Shown here in pieces: positions 38,267 through 53,830 of a stretch of DNA of 64,000 bases; position 1 is the stretch's first letter, and the number at the start of each line of letters is the position of its first letter. A program made the translations under genes and the position numbers. The stretch is from an uncultured Gammaproteobacteria bacterium (GTDB lineage: Bacteria; Patescibacteriota; Patescibacteriia; JAHIZJ01), in contig CAYJKP010000002.1 in assembly GCA_964371245.1 (NCBI GenBank), positions 102,960 through 166,959 on the forward strand, in the 5' to 3' direction. The notes beneath the pieces are model-generated. The model saw only the letters and a list, made by a program, of their open reading frames with translations. It did not search any database and was not told where the DNA came from.

Positions 38267-39430
38267 TTAAATTACGTTGATAAAGAGGGAAAATATCGCC
38301 GCGATCCAAAACAGCGTATTCAAGCCGATGGCGCCGACCAGGAAAAATAACAAGATAAAAACAATAATCCGACCGATATTGAGTGACATTTCGCGGAAGA
38401 CGCTCATTTCATCGACGTAATGGCCGGCATCGGCCATTTGTTCATAGGTCAAGGCGTCGAATGGCGTCCGCATAACCGTACTGGCGAGGTTGTGATAGGT
38501 TGAGGCGATAAAAATCTGATAGCCGGTCGTGACAAACGTCTTCGCACCCCAGCCGATCGCGTAAATCACCGTGCCCCAGCGAAGCAGTTTGTGTTTGGAA
38601 AAGGCGTCGGTAAACCGCCCCATGATGAGCTGCACGACGATCGTCACAAAAACCGCCAACGTAGAGACGGCGCCGATTTCGAAATAGTTGTGATTCAATA
38701 TTTGGTAGATAAAGAGCGGCCAGATGGACAGACCGATTCCATTTTCAGCCCCCTCGGCGGCATAGGCAAACAACAAACGCCGGTGCTTCGTAAAAAGGAG
38801 GCGGTAGGTTTCAAAATAGCCGTAGGAAAACTTTTCTCTCACCGGACGAGTGAAGATCAGGGGGAAGATCGACAGAAAGACTAATATAACCACAATAATT
38901 AAGAGATTTTGGTACCCATATTTGGCAATGATGAAGCCGGCCGCGATCGGAATGGTGATGCCGACCAGATCGGCGATGGCATTGAAATAGCTGAGTTGCC
39001 GGCCGCGATTTCGGCGGCTCGTGAACTCAGCCAGCTCGGTGTGATACGGCACCCAGTATAAACACCGCCAGATAGTTGTCATCCCGATTGCAATCAAGAT
39101 AAAGGTCCAAACGCCGTTTTGAACAAAATAATACGCGACGTAGGAAAGCGCTAAAAACGGTATGCCGATCATCATTGACCGCTTCAAGCCCAGCCGGCTC
39201 ATCGCCCGGGCGCCCGGCTGGATGAACAGGAGGTAGGCCAACCATTCGAGGATGTAAAACACGATCACCGCCTTGAGCGAGAAATTCAGCTTCTCGTACA
39301 AAAAGATGGGCAAAAATATGCCCAGCAGGCTCGTGGCCGCATTCTGAATCAAGCGCTGCGAATAGAGCGCGATGATGTCGGGCGTGAACTTTCCCTTTGG
39401 TTTTTCGAGTGAAAAGGTCTCTTTAGACAT
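38267..39430 (-). CDS. MFS-like polytopic membrane transporter, paralog B
   Basis: 387 aa with the same architecture as 36472-37638. Confidence 0.5.
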   Translation of the reverse strand: MSKETFSLEKPKGKFTPDIIALYSQRLIQNAATSLLGIFLPIFLYEKLNFSLKAVIVFYILEWLAYLLFIQPGARAMSRLGLKRSMMIGIPFLALSYVAYYFVQNGVWTFILIAIGMTTIWRCLYWVPYHTELAEFTSRRNRGRQLSYFNAIADLVGITIPIAAGFIIAKYGYQNLLIIVVILVFLSIFPLIFTRPVREKFSYGYFETYRLLFTKHRRLLFAYAAEGAENGIGLSIWPLFIYQILNHNYFEIGAVSTLAVFVTIVVQLIMGRFTDAFSKHKLLRWGTVIYAIGWGAKTFVTTGYQIFIASTYHNLASTVMRTPFDALTYEQMADAGHYVDEMSVFREMSLNIGRIIVFILLFFLVGAIGLNTLFWIAAIFSLFINVI

Positions 39431-42400
39431 TCGGGACGACCAGATTTATTATTTTTCCTTTGACGTAGATTATTTTTTTCGGCTGCTGGCCGCTCAGGGA
39501 TTTCCGGATTTTCTCGCGCGACAACGTCTGTTTGGTAACCTCGTCTTCAGTCGCCTCGGCCGAGACAGTGATCCGGTCGCGCATTTTACCGTTGACCTGG
39601 ATGATAATTTCAATTTCGGCATCATGCAAGAATCGTTCATCCGTCGTTGGCCAGCCGGCGGCTGAGGCCAGTCCCTTGCCCCCGTGTTGAGCCCATAGTT
39701 CCTCGGCGAGATGAGGCGCAAACGGCGATAGAATCCGAACGAAGGCAGCAAAATCAGAGCTGCTAATTTCGCCCGCTTGACCCAGGTGATTAATAAAAAT
39801 CATCAGCGCGCTGACCGCCGTATTGAACTTGAACGCCTCGAGATCGTGGCTGACCTTTTGAATTGTCCGATGAAGGAGTTTTTCCGTGGTCGCGTTGGTC
39901 TGTTGACCGATTTTTTTCTGGCTGTCCCAAACCTTGTCCAGAAAACGCCGGACGCCGATCAACCCTTGGGTCGACCAAGGAATCGTGTCCTCGAACGGCC
40001 CCATAAACATCTCGTAAATCCGTAGGCTGTCAGCGCCGTATTGTTTCACCAGATCATCGGGATTGATAACGTTACCGAAGCTTTTCGACATTTTGCGTCC
40101 GTCCTCAGCCAGAACAATGCCGTGCGAATGCCGCCGCCGATACGGTTCGGGATGAGGCACCAGGCCCTGATCGTATAAAAACTTGTGCCAGAAACGGGAA
40201 TACAAAAGATGCAGGGTCGTGTGTTCCATGCCGCCGTTATAAATATCAACCGGCAACCAATAATCGAGCTTTTTCCGATCGGCGAAAACGGCCGGATTGT
40301 GCGGGTCGCAAAAACGCAGGTAGTACCACGACGAACCCGCCCAATTCGGCATCGTGTCGGTTTCGCGTTTCGCCGGCTTCTGGCAAATCGGGCATTTTGT
40401 GTTTACCCATTTTTTTATGCCGGCCAGGGGCGACTCGCCTGTATCCGTCGGTTGGTATTTTTTGACGTACGGCAATTCCACCGGCAGTTGGTCCTCCGGC
40501 ACGGGCACCGGACCATGTTCGGGACAATGAATGATCGGAATCGGCTCGCCCCAGTAGTGCTGGCGGGAAAACACCCAGTCGCGAAGTTTGTATTGGACGG
40601 CTGGCGCGCCAAACGCCTTGGCCATTTTTCCGATCGCCTCGTTGGATGACAACCCGTTATACGGGCCGGAATTGCAGACAACGCCTTCACCGGTGTAACA
40701 ATTAGAATCCGACACGTAGGCCTCCCAGATGTATTTGAAGGAGGCTAAATTCAACCATTCGCCCATTTTTGCTTTTTCTATCCAAACCGCCGTATGATGT
40801 TTCGTGTGTTCATCCGAAACTGGCTCCCTCGTTTCATCGACCAGTTCAAAAAGCATGCCCTGCCCGTACGCATACCGGTTTTCGTCTTTGTGCGTGGCGA
40901 AAAAATGATTGTGCTGCTCGCCGCCAAGGTTTTTTACGAACTTCAAATTCAGATAACCGGTTTCTTCGCGGATTTCCCGACGGGCCGCATCCTCATAGCT
41001 TTCCCCCTCATCAACGCCGCCGATAATACCGGAACGCCAGTCGTATTTTTCCCAGTCCAGGCATAAAAAGGCGTTTTTCTTTTTGCTGTAAACCAGGGCG
41101 TAGGCTGTTTTGCGTTTTACTGTTTTCTTATCCGGTCGGAGCGCGTCTTTGTCTTCCGCATTTTTTGTAAAATATGGCGCAATCACCTGACGGATCGGTA
41201 AATCATATTTTTTCGCGAACTCATAATCCCGCTCGTCATGAGCCGGCACGGCCATGATCGCGCCCGTACCGTAACTCAACAGCACATAGTCGGCCACCCA
41301 AATTGGAATTTCCTCATTGTTCGCCGGATTAATCGCTTTCACTCCTTTCAACTCAACGCCGGTTTTTTCTTTGGCTAAATCCGTCCGGTCCAAATCCGAC
41401 TTCTTCGCCGCTTTCTCGATATATTTTTTAACCTCTCCAAAATTTTGAATTTTGAATTTTGAATTTTGAATTATCTCATGCTCCGGCGCCACGACCAAAT
41501 ACGTGGCTCCGAAAATCGTATCCGGCCGCGTCGTGAAGACTGGTATCGCCGGACTCAATAGCCGGCAGAGCGCGTCCGAATACGGCTTCAATTCAATATA
41601 TTCTTCGGCCGCGGTTTGATCATACGGATAGCGTCCGGTCGCTTTTACGTGATACAACGACCGGAGCGGAAAATGCCAGTCGACTTTCTCGTGCGGTTTC
41701 GTCAAGAGAATAATATCGCGGCGTCCCTGGCTCTGAGTTTCGCGACCATCAGGGGTAAGCAACACCAGTGCGTCGATCCAGTATCCGGCCACGCCGGCTG
41801 GCTGCTTCTCTGCGATCGCTTTGTAAAAATTTAATATCGCCTGTCCGATTTTTTCCGGTGATAAGTTCTTTTCAGTGCGGCCGCGGAAGGCATTTCGCTT
41901 CACCTGCGCCGGGTCGATCATTTCGCCATCAATGAAAAGACCGGTGTCAGTGCCGAGAATCGGCAGATCGGTTTTACCGAAATACGCCTTAGCTTTCCGT
42001 CGGGCGTTTTCGACGAGGTTGCTCTCTTCCGTTACGTCGACGGTTGATAATCCGATTTCCGCCGGCGTAACGACTGACACATTCGGTAAATATTTTGCGA
42101 GCAGTTTTTTGACTCGGTCAACCTTGCTCGGGTTATTCGTGGCTAGCAATACTTTTTTTACCTCAGAGTTTTGAACTCGAAATTGTATTTCCGCCCCTTC
42201 GCTCCGGCCGATCCAATTGACTTGCTGGGTTTTTATCTTCTTCAAATAGTCGACTGTATCCAAATCTTTCAACAACCGATCAGCATAGGCGGTTATTTTT
42301 AACATCCATTGTTTCTGAAGCCGCCGCGTTACCGGCGTGCCGCAGCGCTCGCACTTGCCGCCGATCACCTCTTCATTGGCTAAGCCGATTTTATCTTTCG

Positions 42401-42896
42401 GACACCAGTTGATCGGGATCGTCGCTTGATAGGCCAAGCCCTTTTTATACAATTGGAGAAAAATCCACTGGGTCCATTTGTAATAGTTTGGGTCGGTCGT
42501 ATCGATTTCGCGCGACCAGTCAAACGAGAGGCCGAGCGACTTCATTTGTTTCCGAAAGGTGGCGATGTTTGTATCGGTCGCTTGGCGGGGATGGACGCCC
42601 GTTTTGATGGCATAGTTTTCCGTCGGCAAGCCGAACGCGTCCCAACCAATGGGATAGAGCACGGCAAAACCTTTCAGGCGGCTATACCGCGCCAGGGCGT
42701 CGATGGCACTATAACTGCGAACGTGGCCGACGTGAAGCCCGTCGCCCGAAGGATAGGGGAACTCAACCAAGAGATAGCGTTTTGTCCGCTCGGTATTTTC
42801 CGGCGCCTCAAATGCCGCCTGTTCCAACCAGGTTTTTTGCCACTTCCGTTCAATTTTTTCCGGCTGATACCGTGTTCGTCGCGAAGGCAGAGGCAT
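39423..42896 (-). CDS. leuS: Leucyl-tRNA synthetase with two inserted extra domains (Ham1/RdgB-like and Nudix)
   Basis: HIGH motif (HVGHVRSYS), WIGRSEG, TTRPDTIFGATYLVVAPEH, GTGAIMAVPAHDERDYEFAKKY, KMSKS (RKMSKSFGNV). Start placed at MPLPSRRTRYQPEKIERKWQ (ATG complement at 42894-42896). The ORF track extends it to 43007. Confidence 0.9.
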   Translation of the reverse strand: MPLPSRRTRYQPEKIERKWQKTWLEQAAFEAPENTERTKRYLLVEFPYPSGDGLHVGHVRSYSAIDALARYSRLKGFAVLYPIGWDAFGLPTENYAIKTGVHPRQATDTNIATFRKQMKSLGLSFDWSREIDTTDPNYYKWTQWIFLQLYKKGLAYQATIPINWCPKDKIGLANEEVIGGKCERCGTPVTRRLQKQWMLKITAYADRLLKDLDTVDYLKKIKTQQVNWIGRSEGAEIQFRVQNSEVKKVLLATNNPSKVDRVKKLLAKYLPNVSVVTPAEIGLSTVDVTEESNLVENARRKAKAYFGKTDLPILGTDTGLFIDGEMIDPAQVKRNAFRGRTEKNLSPEKIGQAILNFYKAIAEKQPAGVAGYWIDALVLLTPDGRETQSQGRRDIILLTKPHEKVDWHFPLRSLYHVKATGRYPYDQTAAEEYIELKPYSDALCRLLSPAIPVFTTRPDTIFGATYLVVAPEHEIIQNSKFKIQNFGEVKKYIEKAAKKSDLDRTDLAKEKTGVELKGVKAINPANNEEIPIWVADYVLLSYGTGAIMAVPAHDERDYEFAKKYDLPIRQVIAPYFTKNAEDKDALRPDKKTVKRKTAYALVYSKKKNAFLCLDWEKYDWRSGIIGGVDEGESYEDAARREIREETGYLNLKFVKNLGGEQHNHFFATHKDENRYAYGQGMLFELVDETREPVSDEHTKHHTAVWIEKAKMGEWLNLASFKYIWEAYVSDSNCYTGEGVVCNSGPYNGLSSNEAIGKMAKAFGAPAVQYKLRDWVFSRQHYWGEPIPIIHCPEHGPVPVPEDQLPVELPYVKKYQPTDTGESPLAGIKKWVNTKCPICQKPAKRETDTMPNWAGSSWYYLRFCDPHNPAVFADRKKLDYWLPVDIYNGGMEHTTLHLLYSRFWHKFLYDQGLVPHPEPYRRRHSHGIVLAEDGRKMSKSFGNVINPDDLVKQYGADSLRIYEMFMGPFEDTIPWSTQGLIGVRRFLDKVWDSQKKIGQQTNATTEKLLHRTIQKVSHDLEAFKFNTAVSALMIFINHLGQAGEISSSDFAAFVRILSPFAPHLAEELWAQHGGKGLASAAGWPTTDERFLHDAEIEIIIQVNGKMRDRITVSAEATEDEVTKQTLSREKIRKSLSGQQPKKIIYVKGKIINLVVPNV
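41441..41468. repeat. Perfect 4 x 7-bp microsatellite (aattttg)4 inside the leuS coding region
   Basis: Read directly: aattttgaattttgaattttgaattttg. On the coding strand it encodes ...NSKFKIQNF.... The unit length is not a multiple of 3. Confidence 0.8.
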
Positions 42897-43073
42897 GATC
42901 ACAATACAATTAATTAATCGACGGCTCGTCTTCAAAAGCATATCATTTTTTTGGGGTTTTGCCACGTGAAAATCCATCATACGACTATACCTTGACAGTA
43001 CCGGCATCGCATGATAACCTACTAAATATCAAAACGAAGTGATGCAATAACGTAGCTAATATTAGCCAATTAA

Positions 43074-44447
43074 TTGGCTATTATTTCACGATTAAGGCCA
43101 AAGGCCATTAGCATTTACCTCAAAAAATACAGTCTTACCGCCCTCCGCCAGATCATGCGCGGACTTTCTTATTTATTCAAAGGTTTGGCTCGGATGCTCA
43201 ACCTGGTAATGATTCGACCGATTCGAGTTATTGGCCGCGTCCTCCTCCGCTCCGTCCTTCCGCGCATTTACCTGACTGTTTATTTTCCGATTAAGCGGCG
43301 ATTGATTGAGCGGTTTGCCTTTGCTAAAAGCAAAATTTGGTATCCATTTGCATCGAAATATATCCTGCATTTCTTTCTCCTCGTCATGGCCGGCGGCGTT
43401 TTAGCGCATAGCATAAAAACTCGCGCGGTTTCAGCCGAAGAATTTGGCTCGGATAGTTTGATCAGCCAGTTTATCGGCTTGGATAATCAGATCATCGAAG
43501 AAACTGCCAACGCGACGCCGACGACATCAATGAGCTATCTGAATCAAAAAGGGCTTGTCGGCGGCTCGAACCTTGAAACGCAGGGACCGGCTCCGGATGA
43601 GAGCGAGAACCTCAATCTCTCCCTGGCTCAAGGCGGCAGCTCGATTGTCAAACCGAATATACCAACCACGGAAATCACCGACCAGCCGCGCGAGCTAGTG
43701 GACTATTACGTCGTCCAGGGCGGTGACACGGTCAGTACGATTGCCGATCAATTTAACGTCTCCACGAACACTATTCTCTGGGAAAACCGGCTGGGCGCCA
43801 AGGATTATATTAAACCTGGCGATAAGCTGACTATTCTTCCGACCAGCGGCGTTTCGCATCAGATCAAAAAGGGCGACACCATTGCCAGTATCGCGAAAAA
43901 ATATGGCGTTGAAACCCAGGCGATCATTGATTACAACCAACTCGCCTCCGCCGATGCCATCCAAGTCGATCAAATATTGATCGTGCCGGGCGGCATCGCG
44001 CCGGAAACCATCGCGCCGGCGGCGCCGGCTACTGGCCTCGGTCGCTATGTTAGTGGTGGAACGCCTCCGCCCCCGGCCCGGGTCCCAGCCTCGCAAAAAA
44101 TGCTCTGGCCGACCGGCAGCCACCGCATTAACCAGTACTTTGGTTTTCGTCATACTGGTCTCGATATTGATGGGAATATCGGCTCGCCTATTTATGCCGC
44201 CGAGGGTGGTCGCGTCGAAGTTGTCGGCTGGGGAAAAGGGTACGGTCTGCATGTCATTATTAACCATGGCGGTGGCAAAAAGACGCTCTACGGGCATTTC
44301 AGCAAGGCATACGTAAATTCCGGCCAGCAGGTAAACAAAGGCGACTCAATCGGTCTCATGGGTTGCACCGGCTGGTGCACTGGCCCGCATCTCCACTTTG
44401 AGGTCATCGTCAACGGGAAAAAGATCAATCCGCTGTCATATCTCTAA
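43074..44447 (+). CDS. LysM-domain M23-family peptidoglycan endopeptidase
   Basis: 457 aa. N-terminal TM. Two LysM repeats (YYVVQGGDTVSTIADQFNVSTNTILWENRL and HQIKKGDTIASIAKKYGVETQAIIDYNQL). M23 motifs HTGLDIDGNIGSPIYAAEGG...GLHVIINHGGG...HLHFE. Confidence 0.85.
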   Translation: MAIISRLRPKAISIYLKKYSLTALRQIMRGLSYLFKGLARMLNLVMIRPIRVIGRVLLRSVLPRIYLTVYFPIKRRLIERFAFAKSKIWYPFASKYILHFFLLVMAGGVLAHSIKTRAVSAEEFGSDSLISQFIGLDNQIIEETANATPTTSMSYLNQKGLVGGSNLETQGPAPDESENLNLSLAQGGSSIVKPNIPTTEITDQPRELVDYYVVQGGDTVSTIADQFNVSTNTILWENRLGAKDYIKPGDKLTILPTSGVSHQIKKGDTIASIAKKYGVETQAIIDYNQLASADAIQVDQILIVPGGIAPETIAPAAPATGLGRYVSGGTPPPPARVPASQKMLWPTGSHRINQYFGFRHTGLDIDGNIGSPIYAAEGGRVEVVGWGKGYGLHVIINHGGGKKTLYGHFSKAYVNSGQQVNKGDSIGLMGCTGWCTGPHLHFEVIVNGKKINPLSYL

Positions 44448-44816
44448 ATCAACATATTCCGAGATTCTATAAGGCGGTCGAATGACCGCCTTTTTTGTTG
44501 ATAACTGCATTGACAGCCTTATAATATGATGAAATAATATATCCGGATGGGAGTTCTGCCTGCAGACTTCCGGACAGGGCAACTGACGCCTTCGCATGGA
44601 CCGACCTCCTCTGGTGTATCCGACTGACCGGCATGGTCGCCTTCCTGAAAGGAGGAAGCGAATGCACAAAGTCGCTGTGCGGTAGGTAGAGGGGCCAACC
44701 CATTGCTGCGCCATGGCTCCGTGGTAATGTGGTGAGCCCGCTCGGACCTGATCGTTCAACCTGAGCCTGGATCGTGTCTCTGTACCACAACCACCCCGAA
44801 CGGGAGGAAAGGTACG

Positions 44817-44957
44817 ATGCCCAAGAACCACAGGTCGGCGCCCGGATGTGGGCCGCCGATGTTCGCGCAGGTTCTGTCGAAGATGAAGGCCACGACCAAG
44901 GTCGCCAAGAAGAACGCCGGCACGATCGCCGCCGAGATGGAGGAGACCGGGAGCTAG
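44817..44957 (+). CDS. Candidate 46-codon small ORF with a strong RBS inside the GC-rich 44460-45060 segment
   Basis: gggaggaaaggtacgATG..., MPKNHRSAPGCGPPMFAQVLSKMKATTKVAKKNAGTIAAEMEETGS*, followed by a T-run terminator-like sequence near 45030-45052. Composition is anomalous. Could be a ncRNA instead. Confidence 0.2.
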   Translation: MPKNHRSAPGCGPPMFAQVLSKMKATTKVAKKNAGTIAAEMEETGS

Positions 44958-45225
44958 CGCGTCACCTGCGCCGACCCGGTACGTTCGAACACCCCGCCAT
45001 GGGCGGGAACCAGGGCGCGCGTGATCTACCCAGATCCGCCGCCCGTTTTATTTTTTTAGGTCAAGTGAAGAATTTTAGAAATCATCCCCGACGTGACCGG
45101 GGATCAGAAAGAAGAACATCAGTTGTCACGTTGCGGGACTACAATAATTATTACTTCTGAATTTTGAATTCAGCAGTTTATTAATATACCAAAATTATTG
45201 CTTTCCCTAGCCTATATTGCCCACA

Positions 45226-45254
45226 TTGACAGGAATCCGCGGCCGTGATAGACT
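45226..45254 (+). promoter_or_regulatory. Candidate sigma70 promoter for the RRM-protein gene (TTGACA - 17 nt - TAGACT)
   Basis: ccacaTTGACAggaatccgcggccgtgaTAGACTgacc, about 95 nt upstream of the ATG at 45350. Confidence 0.4.
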
Positions 45255-45349
45255 GACCGCGCTTATCGTTTTGGGACAATCTAATGGTAACATTAGAGGA
45301 TAAAGGTCTCCCGAAATTAGAGAGCGCTCTAATTAAGTGAACAGTACAA

Positions 45350-45685
45350 ATGGCAAAAAAACTGTACGTCGGAGGTTTATCCTACGATGTTACCGACGCC
45401 CAGCTGAACGAGTTCTTCGCTCAAGCCGGGACCGTTGAGTCCGCTTCTGTGATCATCGACCGAATGACCGGCCGCTCGCGCGGTTTCGGCTTCGTCGAGA
45501 TGGCCTCGGATGAGGACGCGAAAAAAGCGGTCGAAACCCTGAACGGTCAGGAATTCGCCGGACGGACCATTACCGTCAATGAAGCCCGACCCATGGCTGA
45601 TCGCCCCCGCGGCGGTGGCGGTGGCGGCGGTTTCGGTGGCGGACGCGGTGGACGCGGTGGCTTCCAGCAACGACGCGACTACTAA
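45350..45685 (+). CDS. RRM-domain RNA-binding protein with a Gly/Arg-rich tail
   Basis: 111 aa. RNP-2 LYVGGL and RNP-1 RGFGFVEM. C-terminal RPRGGGGGGGFGGGRGGRGG. Confidence 0.85.
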   Translation: MAKKLYVGGLSYDVTDAQLNEFFAQAGTVESASVIIDRMTGRSRGFGFVEMASDEDAKKAVETLNGQEFAGRTITVNEARPMADRPRGGGGGGGFGGGRGGRGGFQQRRDY

Positions 45686-45707
45686 GCTTCGATACGAAGT
45701 TTCGAAA

Positions 45708-45737
45708 AAAAGACCTTCTCTACGGAAGGTCTTTTTG
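45708..45737 (+). terminator. Rho-independent terminator after the RRM-protein gene
   Basis: aaaAGACCTTCtctacgGAAGGTCTttttgg. Confidence 0.55.
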
Positions 45738-45812
45738 GTCGATGACAAAGAAAATCATCGGCGGGACGCCTCGGATTGGTAGTTTAATAAACATATATTT
45801 CGATAATCAATG

Positions 45813-46679
45813 TCATTCCATCACCCGGTACTGTAATGCCTCCGCCACCTGATGTATTTGAATCGTATTACTGCCCTCAAGATCGGCAATCGTCCGGCTG
45901 ACTTTCAGCAGGCGCGAGTATGACCGCGCCGAGAGCTGCAACCGAGTCATGGCCGAGCGGAGGAGGTCACCGGTTTTACTATCCAATACACAATGCCGCG
46001 CGATCTCCCGACTGTCCATTTCCGAGTTCGCATATTTCGACTGGCCAGGAAAACGTTGACGCTGGATCAGCCGTGCCGCAATAACGCGTTGACGGATCGT
46101 TTCGGAATTCTCCGCCGGCTGCCGCGATGTCAATTCATCATACTTTACCCGTGGTACAGGAAGGTGGAGATCGATCCGGTCGAGTAAAGGACCAGATATT
46201 TTTTTTCGATAGTATGAAACTTGTTGCGTTGAACAGGTGCAAGCCTTTTCTTTATCACCAAAAAAACCGCACGGGCAGGGATTTTGGGCGGCCACGAGGA
46301 TAAATCGCGCCGGAAAACGCAGGCTGCCGTGCACCCGACTGACATGGATGACGCCGTCCTCAAGCGGTTGGCGCAGACTCTCGAGAACCACCCGGGGGAA
46401 TTCCGGCAGTTCGTCGAGAAACAACACGCCTCGATGGGCCAATGAGATTTCGCCGGGCCGGGGAATCCGTCCGCCGCCGATCAGCGAGGCGGCTGAGGCG
46501 GTATGGTGCGGCGAACGGAATGGCCGTTGCCAGATCATCGGCCGTTCCGGTGCGATCAAACCGGCGATGCTGTAAATCTGGGTGACCTCGACCGATTCTT
46601 CCAGCTCAAGCTCAGGCAAGATCGAAATGAGGGCTTTGGCCAAAAGGGTCTTCCCTGAACCGGGCGGTCCGGAAAAAAG
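45813..46679 (-). pseudogene. comM: comM (YifB/Mg-chelatase-like AAA ATPase), C-terminal part of a gene split by element insertion
   Basis: The frame reads back to LFSGPPGSGKTLLAKALISILPELE (Walker A) at 46679, then ...FLDELPEFPRVVLESLRQPLEDG...NPCPCGFFGD...LLDRIDLHL. Upstream of 46679 the reading frame enters AT-rich foreign DNA and meets a stop. Confidence 0.75.
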
Positions 46680-48244
46680 GAAGTTGTGGACGCAGTACTA
46701 CCTGTACTCTGCTTATCCTCTGTGTTAACGGGGATTGCTCCCAATATATCAATCTGATTATGTCCAAACTCTATCTTTCTTACTAGGCTCTGAAGAATAA
46801 ACTGCTTTTCATCAAATGTAGTATTATTCAGTCTTTTTGAGACATGTTTACAGTAATATTTAATTCCCCTGGAGATAATACTATAAGTAGGATTGTTCTG
46901 TTGTGTTTGGCATGTGTTTTTTTGTTCATTAAGTCGTTTAATGTTTTCTTTAATATTCACCATTTTATCCTTCAATTGATTTAGCTCAACTGCCCCCTCA
47001 CTGTATGCGTCCAACAAACGCTTCTCCTTTTGTTGCTCATTATTAATATCTTTATCTAAGCGTGTTATTTCATTACTGGTTTCCTGAATAGATAGAATAT
47101 TAGTATTTTTTATTCTCTTTACCTGACTCATTATTATATTTGGGTTTATTAATGCCTCACAGACAGTTCCCCAAACTAATGGCTCAAGTATATGCGTACT
47201 GACCATGCTAGCACTACATGTTCTGGGTAACGGAAAATTACGGTGGCGATTACCACATCTGTAAAACGTCTTGTCGTGAACCGGAGTACCATAATATGGC
47301 GATCCACAATCCTTACAAACAACTAAGCCCCTAAGTAAATAGTGGTTCTTTATATTCCTTGGAGACAACTTAACGTTTTCTTTTAATTGTTTTTGAGCTC
47401 GGTCAAAAACGTCCTGTCCAATTATTGACGGCACACTAATGGGTATCCACTCTGATTTATTCCTCAGTTTTCTGCCAGTCCTAACACTCCGTTTATATTT
47501 AACGTTAGTCGGAGACTCAATAGACGCATATTTGTTATAATAGGTTATCCCTGTATATGTGTTATTTCTAATTATTCTAGCCACGCTACTTTTCGCCCAT
47601 TTTCCCTTGCCCCCTCTAGGTTGAATGTTCTCTTGTGTTAATTTTTTAGTAATACCTCGAATACTAAGTCTGTCATCAGTAAACCATTTATAAATTAATC
47701 TAACTACCTTGGCTTCTGTTTCAAGTATTTTGTAATAGCCGTTACGTTTTTCGTTTTTCTTAACATATGTGTATCCATATGGCGGTAAACTTCCAACAAT
47801 ATCGCCCCTTCTGGCCTTTGCTAATCTGCCCCTACGCGTTCTCTCCAATATTTTTCCTTTTTCGTATTCGGCGATTAACCCCTGGAAACCAAGCAATAGT
47901 TGATCCTCTGGATTATCACCAATTTCTCTATTAAAAAATAGTAGTTTTACTTTGTTCTTCTCAAGCTCCTCTTTGATTAAATACTGGTATGCGTAATTTC
48001 TCGCCAATCGATCAGGGGAATGAATTAATGCACCCTCAAAAAGATTCTTTTTAGCGTCATCTCTTAGCCTATCCATGCCTGGCCTAGCCATTATTTCACC
48101 GCTCCAGCCGTCATCAATATATTCATCAATAACTGTATGGTTGTTTTTTTTGGCATACTCTTTCAAAGCATCTACCTGTGATCTAATGGTTTTTTGTTGT
48201 TCTTGCCTCTCAGTCGAAACGCGAGCATAAATCGCAATTTTCAT
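46556..48244 (-). CDS. Large serine recombinase (integrase) of the element; its ORF reads across the left junction into host DNA
   Basis: 562 aa. N-terminal resolvase catalytic domain MKIAIYARVSTERQEQQ (Ser nucleophile). Recombinase domain. Cys-rich zinc-ribbon CKDCGSPYYG...CGNRHRNFPLPRTC. Coiled-coil. The last ~40 codons are GC-rich host sequence in an alternative frame of comM. Confidence 0.85.
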   Translation of the reverse strand: MKIAIYARVSTERQEQQKTIRSQVDALKEYAKKNNHTVIDEYIDDGWSGEIMARPGMDRLRDDAKKNLFEGALIHSPDRLARNYAYQYLIKEELEKNKVKLLFFNREIGDNPEDQLLLGFQGLIAEYEKGKILERTRRGRLAKARRGDIVGSLPPYGYTYVKKNEKRNGYYKILETEAKVVRLIYKWFTDDRLSIRGITKKLTQENIQPRGGKGKWAKSSVARIIRNNTYTGITYYNKYASIESPTNVKYKRSVRTGRKLRNKSEWIPISVPSIIGQDVFDRAQKQLKENVKLSPRNIKNHYLLRGLVVCKDCGSPYYGTPVHDKTFYRCGNRHRNFPLPRTCSASMVSTHILEPLVWGTVCEALINPNIIMSQVKRIKNTNILSIQETSNEITRLDKDINNEQQKEKRLLDAYSEGAVELNQLKDKMVNIKENIKRLNEQKNTCQTQQNNPTYSIISRGIKYYCKHVSKRLNNTTFDEKQFILQSLVRKIEFGHNQIDILGAIPVNTEDKQSTGSTASTTSFFPDRPVQGRPFWPKPSFRSCLSLSWKNRSRSPRFTASPV

Positions 48245-48351
48245 ATTTATTGTCTAAATTATTGGTTATGTTAGAATACAAAAGCAGTAATCTGCACCAA
48301 AGACTTCTTGTTTAGCGATGGGGAGTCTTTTGGTATATTGTTTCGCTTTCT

Positions 48352-48756
48352 TTACTGTGGGTATCTTTTAAAACATTCATCTTTCGATTCTTTACGAAAA
48401 CTTTCAATATGATTTGCGGTTGCTGAAGGAAGGCTACAGTCGTCCTTTAATTTTCTTGATTCACATTCTGTCTTCCATTGCGCCAAATAGCTTTCATCTG
48501 CTGACTGTAGACATACATTTAATAATCTTGTGTTCAATGATTCTTTTGATTTTTCATCCTCTATTTTTTTTTGTTCTGACGACCATTTGTCTCTCTCAAA
48601 GTCTAATTTCGCTTTCTCTTTTTGCGGTATAAAAATCACAAAGTAGTAAAATATTGACCCGGCGACAATTAATATACCTAATACAATGGCGATTGTAATA
48701 ATTTTTTTATGATATTTATGTCTATTTTCTTGTTCGTTGATTAATTGCTCTTCCAT
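48352..48756 (-). CDS. Element-encoded small membrane protein (hypothetical)
   Basis: 134 aa. TM helix KIITIAIVLGILIVAGSIFYYFVIFI. Charged C-terminus. Confidence 0.4.
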   Translation of the reverse strand: MEEQLINEQENRHKYHKKIITIAIVLGILIVAGSIFYYFVIFIPQKEKAKLDFERDKWSSEQKKIEDEKSKESLNTRLLNVCLQSADESYLAQWKTECESRKLKDDCSLPSATANHIESFRKESKDECFKRYPQ

Positions 48757-48768
48757 AAATTATAAAAG

Positions 48769-48933
48769 TTAATTGTTAGTCTTGTTTAATAATTTATAAA
48801 TATTTTTTTCACTAATTCTCCAATGCCCAATCTTAGAAGCTTTTATTTTACCAGATTTAATATAACGAAAAATCGTTCGTTCACTTACTCTTAATATAGC
48901 GGCTACTTCTTTGATCGTTAGTAGTCTGTCCAT
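48769..48933 (-). CDS. Excisionase/Xis-like HTH DNA-binding protein (54 aa)
   Basis: Hand translation: MDRLLTIKEVAAILRVSERTIFRYIKSGKIKASKIGHWRISEKNIYKLLNKTNN. Typical excisionase-family HTH. Sits next to the recombinase gene. Confidence 0.55.
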   Translation of the reverse strand: MDRLLTIKEVAAILRVSERTIFRYIKSGKIKASKIGHWRISEKNIYKLLNKTNN

Positions 48934-49075
48934 ATAAACATAGTGTAAAACGATATATTTCTATTGTCAAGTATTGTCATGCTTTGTCATTCTATTGACT
49001 TGTTGGGCTTACGGGCGTATGTTTGGGTTGCAAGAGTTCCTTGATTAAACGCTAATTGTCTAATTAATCCTGTAT

Positions 49076-49861
49076 ATGAAAGAAAAATCAATTATTCATT
49101 TCTTGATTCTCGGAATGTTCTCCATTATTGTTGGTGGTGGAATTCTTTGGTATGCATCACAATTCAAGACTGATTCTTCTACCATAGGAATTATTCATAA
49201 TATTCCAAAAGTATTAGGCGAAGAAACAAAAAATATTAATGTTCCGGCAGTAAATACTAATGAACCTATTGTAGAAGAAAAAGCTGCATCTCAACCAGTT
49301 GCTTCAACAGGAATGTCATCTAGCGAAGTAAGTGGACTATTTTTGACTTATTATAATCGCGGCGCTAGCCAAGATGAACTTAATTGGTGGTCGGGGCGAA
49401 ATAAATCAGAACTAGAGTCTAACTTAAAGAGCCATCCACTAACTAAAGACAATAATCAATCCCAACAAACTGCTACAAATACTAATACCAACTCAACACC
49501 TACTACAAATACCAACGCCACGCCCACACCGACTCCTACTGTTGACCCTGCGATAAAAATCGAGCTCTGTAAGTCCGAAGCGGATACAGCTAAGATAGCC
49601 GCAAAAACAACATGCACTAACTCTGCGATGGAAGCGTTTCGTGCAGACCCCAATAACGTCATGGCCCTGAAAGAATCGTCGAAGTGCAACACCAAATATT
49701 CCGACATCTTTGATCCCAGTGCAAGAAATTCCTTAATAAATCAATGCGTAAGCATGTATACTCAAGTAATGAGCGACATAAAATCCGGCTACCTGACCAA
49801 GATACCTGCATGCACAGATGCGGTCTATCAAAATACCTATACTGAATGTTTGAATAAGTAA
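49076..49861 (+). CDS. Element-encoded secreted protein with a Thr/Asn-rich linker and a Cys-containing C-terminal domain (hypothetical)
   Basis: 261 aa. N-terminal TM/signal IIHFLILGMFSIIVGGGILWYA. Linker QQTATNTNTNSTPTTNTNATPTPTPTV. C-terminal domain with 6 Cys. Confidence 0.5.
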   Translation: MKEKSIIHFLILGMFSIIVGGGILWYASQFKTDSSTIGIIHNIPKVLGEETKNINVPAVNTNEPIVEEKAASQPVASTGMSSSEVSGLFLTYYNRGASQDELNWWSGRNKSELESNLKSHPLTKDNNQSQQTATNTNTNSTPTTNTNATPTPTPTVDPAIKIELCKSEADTAKIAAKTTCTNSAMEAFRADPNNVMALKESSKCNTKYSDIFDPSARNSLINQCVSMYTQVMSDIKSGYLTKIPACTDAVYQNTYTECLNK

Positions 49862-50086
49862 CACCATTTGAGCATAAGAATACTTTTTCATAGTACTAGA
49901 CAACTGGTATTTTTTACTTTATTTAATCAACCTCTTTTAAGTAGTAACAAAATCACTTAACTCTCTTTATATGATTCGTAAAATCATAATCAAGTCTCTT
50001 GAGTAATCCATAGTTACTATATACCCCATAGTTACCTACTTAATAGAACAGATACTATATAGTTACTAGAGTACTATATTAGGGTA

Positions 50087-50380
50087 TTACGTCTGTAAGC
50101 TTTCTTTGAAGACCTGATTATTGAATTCTTCGACTATCTTCGTTTCTAATTCTTTCCATAGTTCGGGGTTTTCGCAATAATAGTAGAATTCCCATTTTTT
50201 GTTATCCTTTTGTTTTCTGGGTGGATAAACAAAATAGTTACCATCTAATTTACGAAGATGTACGGTGAAACCTTTTATCCTGTGAACGTCATCAATAATG
50301 ATGTTGGCGATAGCCAGTGTTGAGCTACCCGGTTTTTTAGTTTTAACGCTGACTTTGATGTTTGATGTATCAATACTCAT
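50087..50380 (-). CDS. SpoVG-like protein
   Basis: 97 aa. ...KVSVKTKKPGSSTLAIANIIIDDVHRIKGFTVHLRKLDGNYFVYPPRKQKDNKKWEFYYYCENPELWKELETKIVEEF follows the SpoVG pattern (..AiAsitlD.efvvhdirvi.g.nGlFVamPsrk...g.frdi.hpin...r..i...vl.ey). Confidence 0.4.
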   Translation of the reverse strand: MSIDTSNIKVSVKTKKPGSSTLAIANIIIDDVHRIKGFTVHLRKLDGNYFVYPPRKQKDNKKWEFYYYCENPELWKELETKIVEEFNNQVFKESLQT

Positions 50381-50451
50381 TTTCGATAAATTATTTTGTT
50401 AGAGGACAATTTTTAGTGCTCACAGACACAAATAGGGGGGTCAAAACGGGG

Positions 50452-50661
50452 TCATAACAAAAGCTGACGTCTTAGGATGTCCTTGATTATCTGTTCTTTT
50501 TCAGAAGGGTCATAATCGTCCCTTGAGACACACTTGTTGAAGTGTTTACGGATCAGCCTCGGTTTGTCGGTATTATTCAATGACTGCCAAAATGCAGGTA
50601 CATCACCAACAAGTGGGTTTTTTCTTTTAATTGCCTTGAATCGTGTTGATATTGATTTCAT
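50452..50661 (-). CDS. Element-encoded hypothetical protein (69 aa)
   Basis: ORF only; no motifs. Confidence 0.25.
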   Translation of the reverse strand: MKSISTRFKAIKRKNPLVGDVPAFWQSLNNTDKPRLIRKHFNKCVSRDDYDPSEKEQIIKDILRRQLLL

Positions 50662-51250
50662 GGTTTTTGTGAGTTATTCATCTTGATTTTAATTATTGTT
50701 ATGTCGTATTTTCTTCTCAATTTCATAAATATCTTTTAGCAGTAAATCAAACACAATGTTTAAACTATTATTCTGTAATTCGTTTTTTTCTTGTATGATT
50801 GTTATTTTGTAAAGATTTGTTTTTTCCATATAAAAAGAGCTAACCAATTTAGCTCCTCACGGGTATGCGCGAAGATTTAATAATTTATTTATTACAAATC
50901 ATAAATTATTGGTCAAGCTTCTAAGCAGCACAGCCTATGAACATGTTATTAACAATTTACGTAATATATTAACAAAACTGGAGTAATTTCCAGTTTATTG
51001 TTTATATATTAATCGAGTAATTTGATGGTATATCCCTACTATTTTGTACCAATCGCAGTACGTATACTGTTTTAGTCAAGACGAGTGTAATATGTGCCAG
51101 TTATCGGTTACACCGAAGTATGCAAATTGTAATGGCCTTTTTGTGATATATGGTTTGAGAGTCATAAAATTACTACGACCCCAAACTACACCCCACCCCT
51201 CTATGTCCCCTCGTTGTATTTGGTTAAATAAATGTTTATTCCAGAGCTTT

Positions 51251-52255
51251 CTACCCGCCTGGGCAAATGCTCTCACATGGCACACCATCTTTATCATTAT
51301 CTCTAATTGAACAACCACAATTATTCAACTGATAATATGCCTCCTCGCAGGTGGATATTTGCGTGCAAGTCTTCTTGCAGTCGCATGTATATTTTGACGT
51401 ATTAGTATCTGTGGCTGTGTTTGTATTTGTAACAACGTTTGTGTTGGTAGTTGTGTTCGTATTTACGACTGTATTGATATTTGCTGCTGTGTTAGTACTT
51501 GTCTGTGTTGTGGGTATTTCCGTAGAACCATTGCAAGTATTATCCGCCCATAATCCCTTCTTGCCTTCACGAGCCCGAGTTTCTAGAGTTTTATATTCCT
51601 CCGTCTTTGAAGTCGGATACTTCAAATAGGCATACGCGTACCCTTCCCGAATCATCGTTGCTCCAATGTCTTCATTTTCTAAGTATATATACCGCAACAA
51701 CCTGCCGTACTTATCTCTATCCCCTTGGCTAGCATCCACTAATAGTATTACCTTTTTACCATTAACCAACTCTTTCATTTTATCAGACGCTTCCTTGCCA
51801 AAACACTGAACCGCTTTTCTAGGATCAACTGTCTCTGGAGTATCAATTCCGAGAATACGTATCTTGTTTCCATCAGATAATTTTACTGTGTCCCCATCAA
51901 CCACGCTTGAAATAATTGCTTCCGAACCAACCGGATTTGTTATACTTGAATTACTCGACGATACAACTGTATAGTTTGAGGGGATTGTTACGTCCTCTTG
52001 TTTTATATCTACTACAGAATCATCTGCGGTCTTATCATCGTCATATTCTACCAGTGAAGGTATAGTGATTGTTTTTGTGACTTCTGAATTGACGTTATTA
52101 TTTGTATTGTTTTGCGGCTGATTTGAATTTGTTTTATTGCTACTACTAATTGACGCAATTCCAATTATAAATAATATAAAGCCACCTATAATCCAAAGCC
52201 ATTTTTTACTTTTCTTTTTTGGTTTTTGTTCTTGATCTGTCTGTTGATTGTCCAT
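51251..52255 (-). CDS. Membrane-anchored secreted thermonuclease (staphylococcal nuclease/SNase family) with a Thr/Asn-rich linker and a Cys-rich C-terminal module
   Basis: 334 aa. TM WLWIIGGFILFIIGIASI. SNase core VVDGDTVKLSDGNKIRILGIDTPET...GRLLRYIYLENEDIGATMIREGYAYAYLKYP. T/N-rich stretch. C-terminus CDCKKTCTQISTCEEAYYQLNNCGCS...CESICPGG. Confidence 0.7.
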   Translation of the reverse strand: MDNQQTDQEQKPKKKSKKWLWIIGGFILFIIGIASISSSNKTNSNQPQNNTNNNVNSEVTKTITIPSLVEYDDDKTADDSVVDIKQEDVTIPSNYTVVSSSNSSITNPVGSEAIISSVVDGDTVKLSDGNKIRILGIDTPETVDPRKAVQCFGKEASDKMKELVNGKKVILLVDASQGDRDKYGRLLRYIYLENEDIGATMIREGYAYAYLKYPTSKTEEYKTLETRAREGKKGLWADNTCNGSTEIPTTQTSTNTAANINTVVNTNTTTNTNVVTNTNTATDTNTSKYTCDCKKTCTQISTCEEAYYQLNNCGCSIRDNDKDGVPCESICPGG

Positions 52256-52270
52256 AAATGTATTGATTAT

Positions 52271-52462
52271 TTAAGTACCAAAATGCCTCCCACACAATGT
52301 TGTGCAACCTTGGGCTTTAATGTCGGGCATGTCTTTAAGACATTGAATCCGGCAAGCCTCAAATTCTGTCTTTTGGCTTGGCCTTAAAACAAGATAATAT
52401 GCAACCGATAACGCAACAAGCCAAATTCCAAATACGATGCTGATTTTTAGAAACTTGCTCAT
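52271..52462 (-). CDS. Element-encoded small membrane protein (63 aa, 4 Cys)
   Basis: TM ISIVFGIWLVALSVAYYLVL, then CRIQC...C..LC. Confidence 0.3.
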   Translation of the reverse strand: MSKFLKISIVFGIWLVALSVAYYLVLRPSQKTEFEACRIQCLKDMPDIKAQGCTTLCGRHFGT

Positions 52463-52523
52463 AACATTGTTAGTTAATTTTTAATAATATATCGATCTAA
52501 TCTCGTCAATAATATATATGATC

Positions 52524-52982
52524 CTATTTATTTGCTTGTTTTTTAGTTGTATATTTTTCAGCCATCTCAATAATGTAGGAATTGTAACTACCGCTATTCC
52601 ATAAATCTTTATTAAACCAAGCCCAAATTTTAATTTTTTTCATCAGAATATTCTTAATCTCTTCTATTTCTTGATTTGTTGGTATCGTTATATTTTGTTT
52701 ATTGTTCTTTTCTTTGTAGTAATAAATATAGCCATCAATGAGTTCTTGTCTCGCACGAACAAATCCGGAATGTTGAGCATATACCAATAAGATAAGTGAC
52801 AGAAAATATACAACAATTAATATAACCCACCAATTTCCATCAGCCTGTAGCTTTGAAATACCATCATCAATTACTCGGAAAATAGTAATGATTAGTAAAC
52901 CAACAAAAGCAACAATTGGAACATAAGCTAGGGCAATTAGCATATTTTCCCACAAATTTCTTTTCCTAAACGTAATAAGCAC
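52524..52982 (-). CDS. Element-encoded membrane protein (152 aa, hypothetical)
   Basis: Two TM helices. AT-rich codon usage like the rest of the element. Confidence 0.35.
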   Translation of the reverse strand: MLITFRKRNLWENMLIALAYVPIVAFVGLLIITIFRVIDDGISKLQADGNWWVILIVVYFLSLILLVYAQHSGFVRARQELIDGYIYYYKEKNNKQNITIPTNQEIEEIKNILMKKIKIWAWFNKDLWNSGSYNSYIIEMAEKYTTKKQANK

Positions 52983-53134
52983 TTTTGTTGATTTTCACTT
53001 AATGCCCTGTATTGAAGTTATATGCCCAGGCCATACCCCCCCCTATATACGCCCCCTCTTTGTATATATAGTTAAATTATACCCTCTTTGGCATCTTTTT
53101 GACCAACCGAAACTCAATGCTTGTTGTACTGTGT

Positions 53135-53830
53135 CTATAATTTAAGCAGGTTATGCCCGCCGGCGGCGGCAATCTCAAGCGCCCGTTTTGCCTGTTCTTG
53201 TCCTTTTATCTGGGAAAAATTAACTGGATATTCAAAGCATTCCCGCCTCGACGCGGTCTGGGTAAACACGGTTAGCGGCGTCGTTCCCTCCAGATGGGCA
53301 ATGAGCGTGTTGAGCGACTGAACCGGATAAATTTCGAGACCGGGAATGATGGCTGCTTCAGCTGCGTTCGCCGCTGGTAAAAATATTTTCCGTAGGCCGT
53401 GGCGTTTGGCTGCCTGCATAATTGAGAGCATCCCCGTAACTGGCCGGAGACGTCCTTCTAAAGAAAGCTCACCGATAAACAGCGCATTGTGGTTGGCCGG
53501 CTGGATTTGGCGCGAGGCCATCAGGATGCTGACCGCGATCGGTAAATCAAACCCTGGTCCTTCTTTTTTCATATCGGCCGGTGCCAGATTCACCGTCACG
53601 CGCGTCGTCGGAAAACGAACGGCGCTGTTTTTTATCGATGAACGAACCCGTTCGCGCGCTTCTTGGACGGCGAGATCCGGCAATCCGACGATGAAAAATT
53701 TTGGCAGACCCGAGGCGATATCCGCCTCGACCTCGACTAATTCGGCCTCGAGGCCGACCACGGCCGCTGATAACACTTTTCCAGGCATAGAAAAACAGGC
53801 TCGTCTCGCCTGCCATTTAAAACCTACCAT
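53135..53830 (-). pseudogene. comM: comM, N-terminal part (ChlI-like N-domain up to just before the P-loop), truncated by the element
   Basis: 231 aa ending ...FSQIKGQEQAKRALEIAAAGGHNLLKL*. In intact ComM/YifB this segment is immediately followed by the GPPGxGKT Walker A motif, which is found at 46679. Confidence 0.75.

Follow-up and report, generated by a model that had tools for sequence, protein, structure and literature searches.

The leaders of ermC/ermB, cat, and cmlA are antibiotic-inducible leader-peptide attenuators, and the leader peptides that respond to chloramphenicol have alanine at their penultimate positions. Dual-function RNAs include RNAIII/hld of Staphylococcus aureus (514 nucleotides [nt], with the 26-amino-acid delta-hemolysin), SR1/SR1P of Bacillus subtilis, and SgrS/SgrT of Escherichia coli. 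In IncI1 and IncB/O plasmids, repZ/repA is controlled by a leader peptide together with a pseudoknot (repY-repZ; PMC8053102), and the account given in that paper credits the repY-repZ work to Asano and Mizobuchi (1998) and Praszkier and Pittard (2002). Ribosome profiling finds unannotated bacterial small proteins of ≤50 amino acids, according to a preprint (bioRxiv 10.1101/511675). Here we compare with these systems a GC-rich unit of about 515 nt on the plus strand of a 64,000-nt stretch of a Patescibacteria (candidate phyla radiation [CPR]) chromosome (assembly GCA_964371245.1, contig CAYJKP010000002.1, positions 102,960 to 166,959; "the window," in which positions without a prefix are counted). 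The unit is a previously undescribed, clade-restricted small-protein gene with an unusually elaborate conserved leader that carries a mini-open reading frame (mini-ORF). With moderate confidence, we read it as an autonomous, lineage-restricted unit that makes a 46-residue basic protein from an mRNA whose folded leader bears the mini-ORF. A small ORF behind a structured leader with an upstream ORF is an arrangement of a known kind, and the unit is not a new class of element.

An earlier note on this stretch, made from the sequence alone, had picked out the GC-rich segment between the genes for an M23 peptidase and an RRM protein and had offered two readings of it, a small basic protein or a noncoding RNA. 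The GC enrichment is as described: the segment from 44545 to 45057 (513 nt) has 62% GC versus 52% for the window without its low-GC island. As set out below, the protein option is supported, and a known or housekeeping noncoding RNA is not. We sought relatives by exact-protein look-ups of the neighbors, a synteny walk along 12 M23 homologues, and motif scans, and five units were found, four of them complete. They are carried by four lineages only, all within one narrow Patescibacteria clade: the window, L002, L012 (whose contig ends inside the unit), and L013, which has two units in tandem, L013A and L013B. Conservation in relatives was among the checks, rightly chosen, that the earlier note had suggested.

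The M23 protein of L002 (with L022 and L043; metagenome-assembled genome JBAZLK01) is 98% identical to that of the window, and its unit DNA is 85% identical; the M23 proteins of L012 and L013 (with L045 and L046; GCA_028717285.1, JAQTMH01) are 87% and 68% identical, respectively. In the synteny walk the unit was found only where M23 identity was at least 68%. It is absent from L014-L017 and L052-L058, whose M23 proteins are 55 to 67% identical and which keep the synteny from the leucyl-tRNA synthetase (LeuRS) gene through M23 to comM. At NCBI, proteins of the nearest relative are labeled "Patescibacteria group bacterium" and the more distant M23 homologues "Candidatus Kerfeldbacteria." The same locus occurs in about 10 metagenome contigs, with an intergenic region that is 100% identical in all but two, and the gene is called in a minority of the identical contigs. 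As a neutral reference we used the third codon positions of M23 between the window and L002, of which 101/418 differ (24%; 76% identity).

Two features of these relatives are of separate interest. The L013 pair is a tandem duplicate (L013:5190-5860; also L045:7850-8000 plus L046:1-520), in which unit A consists of a mini-ORF, the hairpin P3 described below, and a 28-amino-acid ORF; about 20 nt on, unit B has a mini-ORF, P3, a 46-amino-acid ORF, and a terminator. The N-terminal coding parts of A and B have diverged strongly, and GAGGTCGTCGACACGAGGAGCGC is identical in both. L014, a relative that lacks the unit, has another noncoding stretch of 319 nt at this position downstream of M23 (L014:4110-4429), with a TTGACT promoter-like sequence and a strong terminator; similarity of this stretch to the unit was not detected by nhmmer or by a covariance model search.

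The unit has its own transcription signals. Two overlapping sigma-70-type promoters, each with 11/12 consensus matches, lie at 44498-44538: TTGATA-16-TATAAT at 44498-44525 and TTGACA-17-AATAAT, with a TG extension, at 44510-44538. This region is identical at 42/43 nt between the window and L002, against a difference of 24% at neutral sites, and is kept also in L012; the 5' end of the RNA is predicted at about 44532-44545. At the other end, where the earlier note had placed a terminator-like sequence near 45030-45052, there is an intrinsic terminator whose 13-bp G+C-rich stem (45013-45044) leads into GUUUUAUUUUUUU, ending at 45057. L002 has kept this terminator, with a C-G to U-G change in the stem, and L013B has an analogous stem followed by UAUUUUAUUU. 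Upstream, the unit is bounded by the M23 gene's own terminator (44471-44492 plus a T-run), and the RRM gene has a separate promoter downstream of the unit. The promoter and terminator of the unit are retained in L002 and L013 despite differing neighbors: in both lineages the next gene is a convergent urocanase gene and not the RRM gene, and in L013 a gene for a 203-amino-acid protein separates M23 from the unit. Since the neighbors differ in this way, the unit does not belong to M23 as a 3' extension, nor to the RRM gene as its leader.

The 46-codon ORF has the appearance of a true coding sequence. It runs from 44817 to its UAG stop codon at 44957 (MPKNHRSAPGCGPPMFAQVLSKMKATTKVAKKNAGTIAAEMEETGS), with MPKNHRSAPGCGPPMFAQVLSK among the peptides of its predicted 46-amino-acid protein, and it follows a Shine-Dalgarno sequence (SD2, GGGAGG, 44802-44807). 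Its translation is exactly the one that the earlier note gave; the ribosome-binding site named there is also present, except that the gap from the 11-mer gggaggaaagg to the ATG is 4 nt and not 6 nt. From SD2 to the start codon (44800-44816), 17/17 nt agree with L002; in the two L013 units, AGGAGG and UGGAGG stand at an equivalent distance, and all four complete units pair a canonical SD with an ATG at normal spacing. GC content at the first, second, and third codon positions is 0.50/0.52/0.93 in the window ORF (chi-square P = 5e-6), 0.48/0.52/0.96 in L002 (P = 2e-8), 0.57/0.54/0.86 in L013A, and 0.61/0.50/0.78 in L013B (P = 0.02 each). This period-3 signal is confined to the ORFs, the leader and 3' untranslated region (UTR) giving P values of 0.5 to 0.8. 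Indels between the window and L002 measure 21 and 9 nt inside the ORF and 1 to 2 nt outside it, and the frame is retained at 46 amino acids in the window, 56 in L002, and 46 in L013B; the L013A paralogue is truncated to 28. We take the ORF to be coding because the SD is conserved, third-position GC (GC3) is periodic, the indels are in frame, and the frame is retained in three lineages.

Other frames in the segment did not hold up. Read-through of the UAG was considered, as GC3 is rather high past it, but was rejected because L002 has a 2-nt indel immediately downstream that alters the frame. A 128-amino-acid Arg-rich ORF (44774-45160), judged spurious in the earlier note, has its C-terminal frame shifted by a 2-nt indel in L002 and was rejected.

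With a GC3 of about 0.94, the ORF lies above all others of the 40 ORFs compared in the window; the remaining 39 reach 0.82 at most, from a lower end given as 0.51 or 0.27. High expression was considered as an explanation and dropped; because the other high-GC3 ORFs of the window are not recognizable as highly expressed, we draw no inference from GC3. The next-highest values belong to ORFs on the minus strand at 3560-4924 and 4985-6880 (0.82 and 0.72); Pfam gave nothing for one of them and just a weak SPFH/Band-7 match for the other, and GC3 varies considerably between genes of the host genome.

The predicted protein is fast evolving, its middle changing quickly and its ends staying fixed: the window and L002 agree in all of the first 14 and all of the last 13 residues. 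A PP(M/V)(F/S)A motif occurs in all four homologues, and the full-length copies (window, L002, and L013B) share a Lys/Ala-rich middle and an acidic tail. The protein is probably mostly helical, as AlphaFold 2 (AF2), run on a two-sequence alignment, modeled a single helix over residues 15 to 43 at low confidence (predicted local distance difference test [pLDDT] score of 61). Across homologues it is hydrophilic, with a mean Eisenberg hydrophobicity of -0.04 to -0.21 and a net charge of +2 to +5 (-0.04 and +4 in the window protein). The possibility of an amphipathic, membrane-active helix was rejected, the hydrophobic moment being no higher than in shuffled sequences for 3/4 homologues. Going by composition, we would guess at a small basic nucleic acid-binding or ribosome-associated protein. 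A resemblance of the N terminus to ribosomal protein bL35 (MPK..HR.A) is not seen in L013 and was dropped.

Searches place the protein within the clade. The 46-amino-acid, 56-amino-acid, and L013B proteins matched 0 Pfam-A families at an E value of ≤1. By word-indexed search and by a full HMMER scan of the representatives, no homologue beyond the clade was found among 5.8 billion clustered and 1.84 billion representative proteins; the matches were the L002-lineage protein and two unrelated repeat proteins that share only SAPG.GPP. One exact DNA motif, GGAGGN{6,8}ATGCNCAAASTCGCTG, was scanned against metagenome, genome, and viral collections, and the matches were resamplings of the L002 and L013 lineages; the rest were ordinary gene starts encoding M(R/H/P)K(L/V)A. 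Matches of a covariance model of P3 (R1) were likewise confined to homologous units. A repeat, a multicopy element, or an element of the diversity-generating retroelement type was also considered and set aside, there being no second copy in the window.

Compared with the unannotated small proteins found by ribosome profiling, the gene is similar in having fewer than 50 codons and a canonical SD and in being of a kind that gene callers usually skip. It differs in its long, conserved, structured leader with a mini-ORF of its own, in a GC3 that is extreme for the host genome, and in its restriction to one narrow Patescibacteria clade.

That leader places the main ORF about 270 nt into the predicted transcript, so that the "leaderless" peptide gene of the earlier note is the reverse of what is found. 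It contains a highly conserved noncoding block at 44576-44648, in which 72/73 nt are identical to L002 versus 76% at neutral sites and in which there is no period-3 GC signal. The block holds an anti-SD-like ACCUCCU (44604-44610) and forms a local hairpin that pairs UUCCU with the AGGAA of the SD that follows; the segments CAGGGCA, CCUUCG.AUGG, and ACCUCCUC are retained in L012. This first SD (SD1, GGAGG, 44651-44655) is invariant in 5/5 units and stands 6 nt upstream of the mini-ORF, ATG CAC AAA GTC GCT GTG CGG TAG (44662-44685), which would encode MHKVAVR. The corresponding peptides are MHKVAVL in L002 and MRKVAA in both L013 units, with a stop after 6 to 7 codons in 4/5 units, and the nucleotide core AUGCNCAAA(G/C)UCGCUG is conserved in all five. 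From the mini-ORF stop to P3 there are 6 nt in the window and 0 to 2 nt in L013. A further spacer (44746-44799) is 51/53 identical between the window and L002, and P1, P3, and the middle of the ORF are 69 to 78% identical, so that the unit is a mosaic of conservation. The M23 terminator, the promoter pair at 44498-44538, SD1 with the mini-ORF (44651-44685), and P3 (44692-44739) had all escaped the earlier note.

Individual hairpins in the unit are conserved with compensatory changes. The 5'-terminal hairpin P1 (CCGGA[UGGG]AGUU-loop-GACUUCCGG, 44543-44573) is the CCGGA...UCCGG repeat that had been noticed at about 44545-44575; it is a true hairpin, and its inner stem covaries, being AGUU/GACU in the window, AGUCC/GGACU in L002, and AACCC/GGGUU in L012, with 2 to 3 pairs changed on both sides. 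P3 (44692-44739; apical loop CCAUGGCUC) has 17 to 19 bp in four units, and its loop carries an anti-SD-like CUCC in every one of them. In the P3 alignment 82% of cells are paired versus 32 to 44% in slid controls, 6 pairs are changed on both sides versus 1 to 4, and the covariation score is 0.377 versus ≤0.175, a value reached by 0/500 shuffles.

Farther downstream, P4 (44835-44859) lies inside the main ORF at codons 7 to 15 and ends on Pro-Pro codons; its position is shared with L013A (CGGGC/GCCCG) and L013B (CAUCGGC/GCCGAUG), the sequences being different. The 4-bp hairpin P5 (44957-44971) begins with the final base of the UAG and has CGACC after it; its stems are GCGC/GCGC in the window and L002, AGCG/CGCU in L013A, and GGUC/GACC in L013B. 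P6 is a 3' UTR hairpin (CCCGCC-AUG-GGCGGG, 44993-45007) that is one pair longer in L002 and has a C-G to U-G change there. Around P5 we also observed that all four main ORFs end in UAG and not in UAA or UGA, with a 4-bp hairpin on or adjoining the stop (window 44955-44976, L002:1793-1812, L013:5434-5451, and L013:5749-5769), and that (C)GACC follows this hairpin in 3/4 units, with GAGG in L013B.

Folding of the segment as a whole gave minimum free energy (MFE) z-scores of -1.3 for the plus and -0.4 for the minus strand. Since these are near chance, the case for structure rests on the conservation and compensatory changes of the individual hairpins and not on folding energy, and the "many inverted repeats" reported earlier are no more than chance for the segment as a whole. 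The earlier suggestion of a structured RNA is borne out as far as conserved structure goes, but the structure belongs to an mRNA leader and UTR and not to a free-standing known RNA.

A GAGCC box at 44763-44767 is a candidate pseudoknot partner of GGCUC in the P3 loop (44715-44719). Loop and box are complementary over 5 to 6 bp at the same aligned position in four units, and the L013 paralogues show a compensating difference (GGCUCC/GGAGCU versus GACUCC/GGAGUC). As chance would be expected to give any one of these matches, the pseudoknot is no more than a hypothesis. Such a pairing would recall repY-repZ, which the locus resembles in two features: a short, SD-preceded leader ORF ahead of the main ORF (with a stop in 4/5 units here) and a hairpin loop complementary to a downstream box. 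The two systems differ in geometry and setting. Here the leader ORF ends 131 nt before the main ATG, at a similar distance in L002 and L013, whereas repY overlaps; the loop partner lies about 35 nt upstream of SD2; a consensus scan of 44460-45060 found no antisense promoter; and the unit is chromosomal, with a 46-amino-acid product that is not a replication initiator.

Taken from sequence, the order of events that we propose would be as follows. A sigma-70-type promoter would fire at about 44532-44545 to give an RNA that begins with P1 and continues into the leader block of about 75 nt, which appears to be under strong nucleotide-level constraint. SD1 would then bring ribosomes to the 7-codon mini-ORF, where they would stop 6 nt before P3 (0 to 2 nt in L013), whose loop would display CUCC. 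About 60 nt on, SD2 would drive translation of the 46-codon ORF, which would end in UAG at the small conserved hairpin and be followed by the structured 3' UTR and the intrinsic terminator. What the analysis shows is the anatomy of the unit, the conservation of that anatomy, the coding signature, and the covariation of P3; we infer that the unit is transcribed, that both ORFs are translated, and that there may be a regulatory link between them. The leader, with its mini-ORF, P3, and possible loop-GAGCC pseudoknot, could tune translation of the small protein in cis; we infer this to be its most likely role because of the strong constraint and the two canonical ribosome-binding sites.

The likeness to the erm and cat leaders lies in a very short ORF with a strong SD, a stable hairpin directly behind it, and another SD and ORF after that, and the mini-peptide has the alanine at penultimate positions (KVAV/KVAA) that is seen in cat-type leaders. 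It differs from them in that modeled occupancy of the leader does not expose SD2, which is no more occluded than in control genes, and in that the downstream 46-amino-acid protein is not a resistance determinant (it is Pfam negative) and is followed directly by a terminator. These modeling results are among several points that weigh against our reading. The probability of being unpaired in the translation initiation regions of both ORFs is 0.30 to 0.59 (0.30 to 0.57 from SD2 to the AUG), no different from that of 31 control genes (0.49 ± 0.11). When the mini-ORF region and the foot of P3 were forced to be single stranded, SD2 was not opened in any of the four units; its accessibility shifted by +0.08 at most and fell in the window, under thermodynamics that cover nested structures only. 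An erm-type unmasking is therefore not supported by nested-fold modeling, and SD sequestration was rejected as a mechanism, as neither the accessibility nor the forced-opening results favor it. In L012, a 9-nt deletion has removed the stop of the mini-ORF (MPKLAVR...), and no further stop is reached before the contig ends. Where the middle of the main ORF can be aligned, the window and L002 differ by four substitutions, all of them nonsynonymous and at second positions, and the N- and C-terminal coding parts are 83/84 nt identical, with fewer synonymous changes than the neutral 24% predicts; this identity points to extra RNA-level constraint, codon bias, or recent recombination, and P4 and P5 sit in these near-identical termini. 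The nearby RRM gene, too, is 98.7% identical to L002. Finally, the covariation statistics are thin because the family consists of four lineages only, the AF2 model has low confidence, and the protein lacks homologues beyond the clade.

A rival reading is a structured transcript of about 515 nt that acts mainly as an RNA, in the manner of RNAIII, SR1, or SgrS, its ORFs being secondary or incidental and its ACCUCCU (leader) and CUCC (P3 loop) pairing, for example, with SD regions elsewhere among the mRNAs. Constraint at the nucleotide level, together with these anti-SD-like motifs, makes this the main rival, although we regard it as unlikely. Constraint exceeds the neutral level in the noncoding blocks (72/73 and 51/53) as well as in the coding termini (83/84), P4 and P5 are conserved inside and at the end of the ORF, and third positions of the mini-ORF are conserved while its second codon varies among H, R, and P. 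The CUCC in the P3 loop of 4/4 units and the unit's own promoter and terminator also suit such an RNA, and the likeness to known dual-function RNAs extends to a predicted stand-alone structured transcript of about 0.5 kb with a peptide of <60 amino acids and to C-rich anti-SD-like motifs in the loop and leader. On the other hand, the period-3 GC3 signal is limited to the ORF in 4/4 units, and without translation it is hard to account for the in-frame indels and the two canonical SD-ATG pairs. The folding energy is unexceptional (z = -1.3), and a target is not nameable from 64 kb. There is no sequence or structural homology to these RNAs (Rfam was negative), and in comparison with RNAIII the peptide is hydrophilic and basic instead of an amphipathic cytolysin, and a second mini-ORF is present. 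A bolder proposal, which we consider somewhat less likely still, is a previously undescribed, CPR-specific riboregulatory module in an episymbiotic Patescibacterium, in which the leader, with its mini-ORF, P3 and CUCC loop, and pseudoknot, would gate a fast-diversifying secreted or host-directed peptide or the transcript would be an RNAIII-like dual-function RNA that targets SDs in trans.

Our reading of a small-protein gene with a cis-acting leader also has to be set against the absence of any function, the unit being a horizontally acquired high-GC fragment or the remnant of a decaying gene. In a genome of about 52% GC, its 62% GC and its GC3 of 0.94 stand out as foreign, its distribution is patchy, with absence from the syntenic L014-L017 and L052-L058, and the middle of its protein evolves fast. 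Yet three diverged lineages have the promoter, both SDs, the codons for start and stop, and the terminator all intact, blocks of 96 to 100% identity stand against 76% at neutral sites, and the stems carry compensatory changes. In L013, the downstream copy B keeps the full 46-codon ORF and the upstream copy A is cut to 28 codons, and a blastn search in "distant" mode found no similarity to the segment in phage and plasmid collections. We consider a functionless fragment quite improbable.

The earlier note had also called the peptide possibly toxin-like. An arrangement like a type I toxin-antitoxin system would involve either a hydrophobic peptide from the minus strand or a plus-strand toxin checked by an antisense RNA, and we give it very little credence. 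A minus-strand frame at 44756-44923 (MPAFFLATLVVAFIF...) does encode a hydrophobic 55-amino-acid peptide with a GC-rich third position, similar in L013, and a long structured mRNA with an upstream mini-ORF is loosely like mok/hok. However, the minus-strand frames start with GTG or TTG and have no SD, the sequence upstream being CTCCTCC, and their similarity between lineages is the necessary mirror of Lys-rich plus-strand codons. A consensus scan of 44460-45060 found no promoter-like site on the minus strand from which an antisense RNA could start. The plus-strand protein, hydrophilic and not consistently amphipathic, is not the small, hydrophobic, membrane-inserting toxin of such systems.

Housekeeping or large structured RNAs (RNase P, tmRNA, SRP, 6S, or ROOL/GOLLD/OLE/raiA) are typically of about this size (0.5 kb), GC rich within a genome of lower GC, and framed by a promoter and a terminator, but a divergent copy of one of them is effectively refuted, since the unit is missing from close syntenic relatives, unlike a housekeeping RNA, and the segment is empty in Rfam 15. 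The Rfam scan, proposed in the earlier note as a check for such an RNA, returned only two tRNAs (1974-2213) for the whole window at gathering thresholds and, for 44300-45400 at E ≤ 10 with relaxed filters, nothing inside 44545-45040; the weak matches at that level fall on the M23 terminator and AT-rich flanks. ARAGORN found no tmRNA in the window; the earlier note had matched neither RNase P nor tmRNA nor SRP by eye.

Annotation of small proteins and of their mRNA leaders is very poor in Patescibacteria, where genomes are reduced and made up for the most part of genes with no known function, and the locus offers a clean, testable example from promoter to terminator with two canonical translation starts. 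If the leader is regulatory, it would be among the first cis-regulatory RNA designs described for the phylum; if it is not, the practical lesson is only that gene callers miss the gene. General significance is limited because the element is confined to a handful of genomes.

The neighborhood of the unit showed further variation among relatives. Upstream lie the genes for LysM-M23 peptidase (43074-44447, plus strand) and, on the minus strand, LeuRS (39423-43007). The latter encodes 1,194 amino acids with inserted Ham1p-like (ITPase) and NUDIX domains; in L016, L017, L054, L056, and L058 there is NUDIX only, or a Ser_hydrolase domain that is sometimes accompanied by NUDIX, and accessory domains seem to be exchanged at the insertion site among members of the clade.

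Downstream, the RRM gene occupies 45350-45685 on the plus strand. The region that comprises it and its 5' flank (45219-45739) matches L002 at 98.7% identity (1 of 336 coding nt differs), compared with 88 to 92% for the genes neighboring it. Such identity suggests a recent recombination event or, alternatively, very strong constraint on the nucleotides themselves, perhaps in a conserved 5' UTR.

The comM gene (Mg-chelatase-like) follows and is split into 45813-46688 and 53135-53830 by a low-GC island of 6.46 kb (about 46689-53143; 35% versus 52% GC). The island encodes a large serine recombinase (46556-48244) and an SNase/Excalibur nuclease (51251-52255), both on the minus strand. L002 and other relatives have an intact comM of 502 amino acids. 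The island junctions overlap by 12 nt in the alignment with L002, and the two copies match at 8/12 positions (AAGGAAGTTGTG versus AAGCAGGTTATG).

Elsewhere in the window, a giant ORF of 3,351 codons lies on the minus strand at 24621-34676. Two tRNA-Met (CAT) genes stand 90 nt apart on the plus strand (1974-2049 and 2140-2216) and are presumably an initiator and an elongator (or Ile2-type) tRNA.

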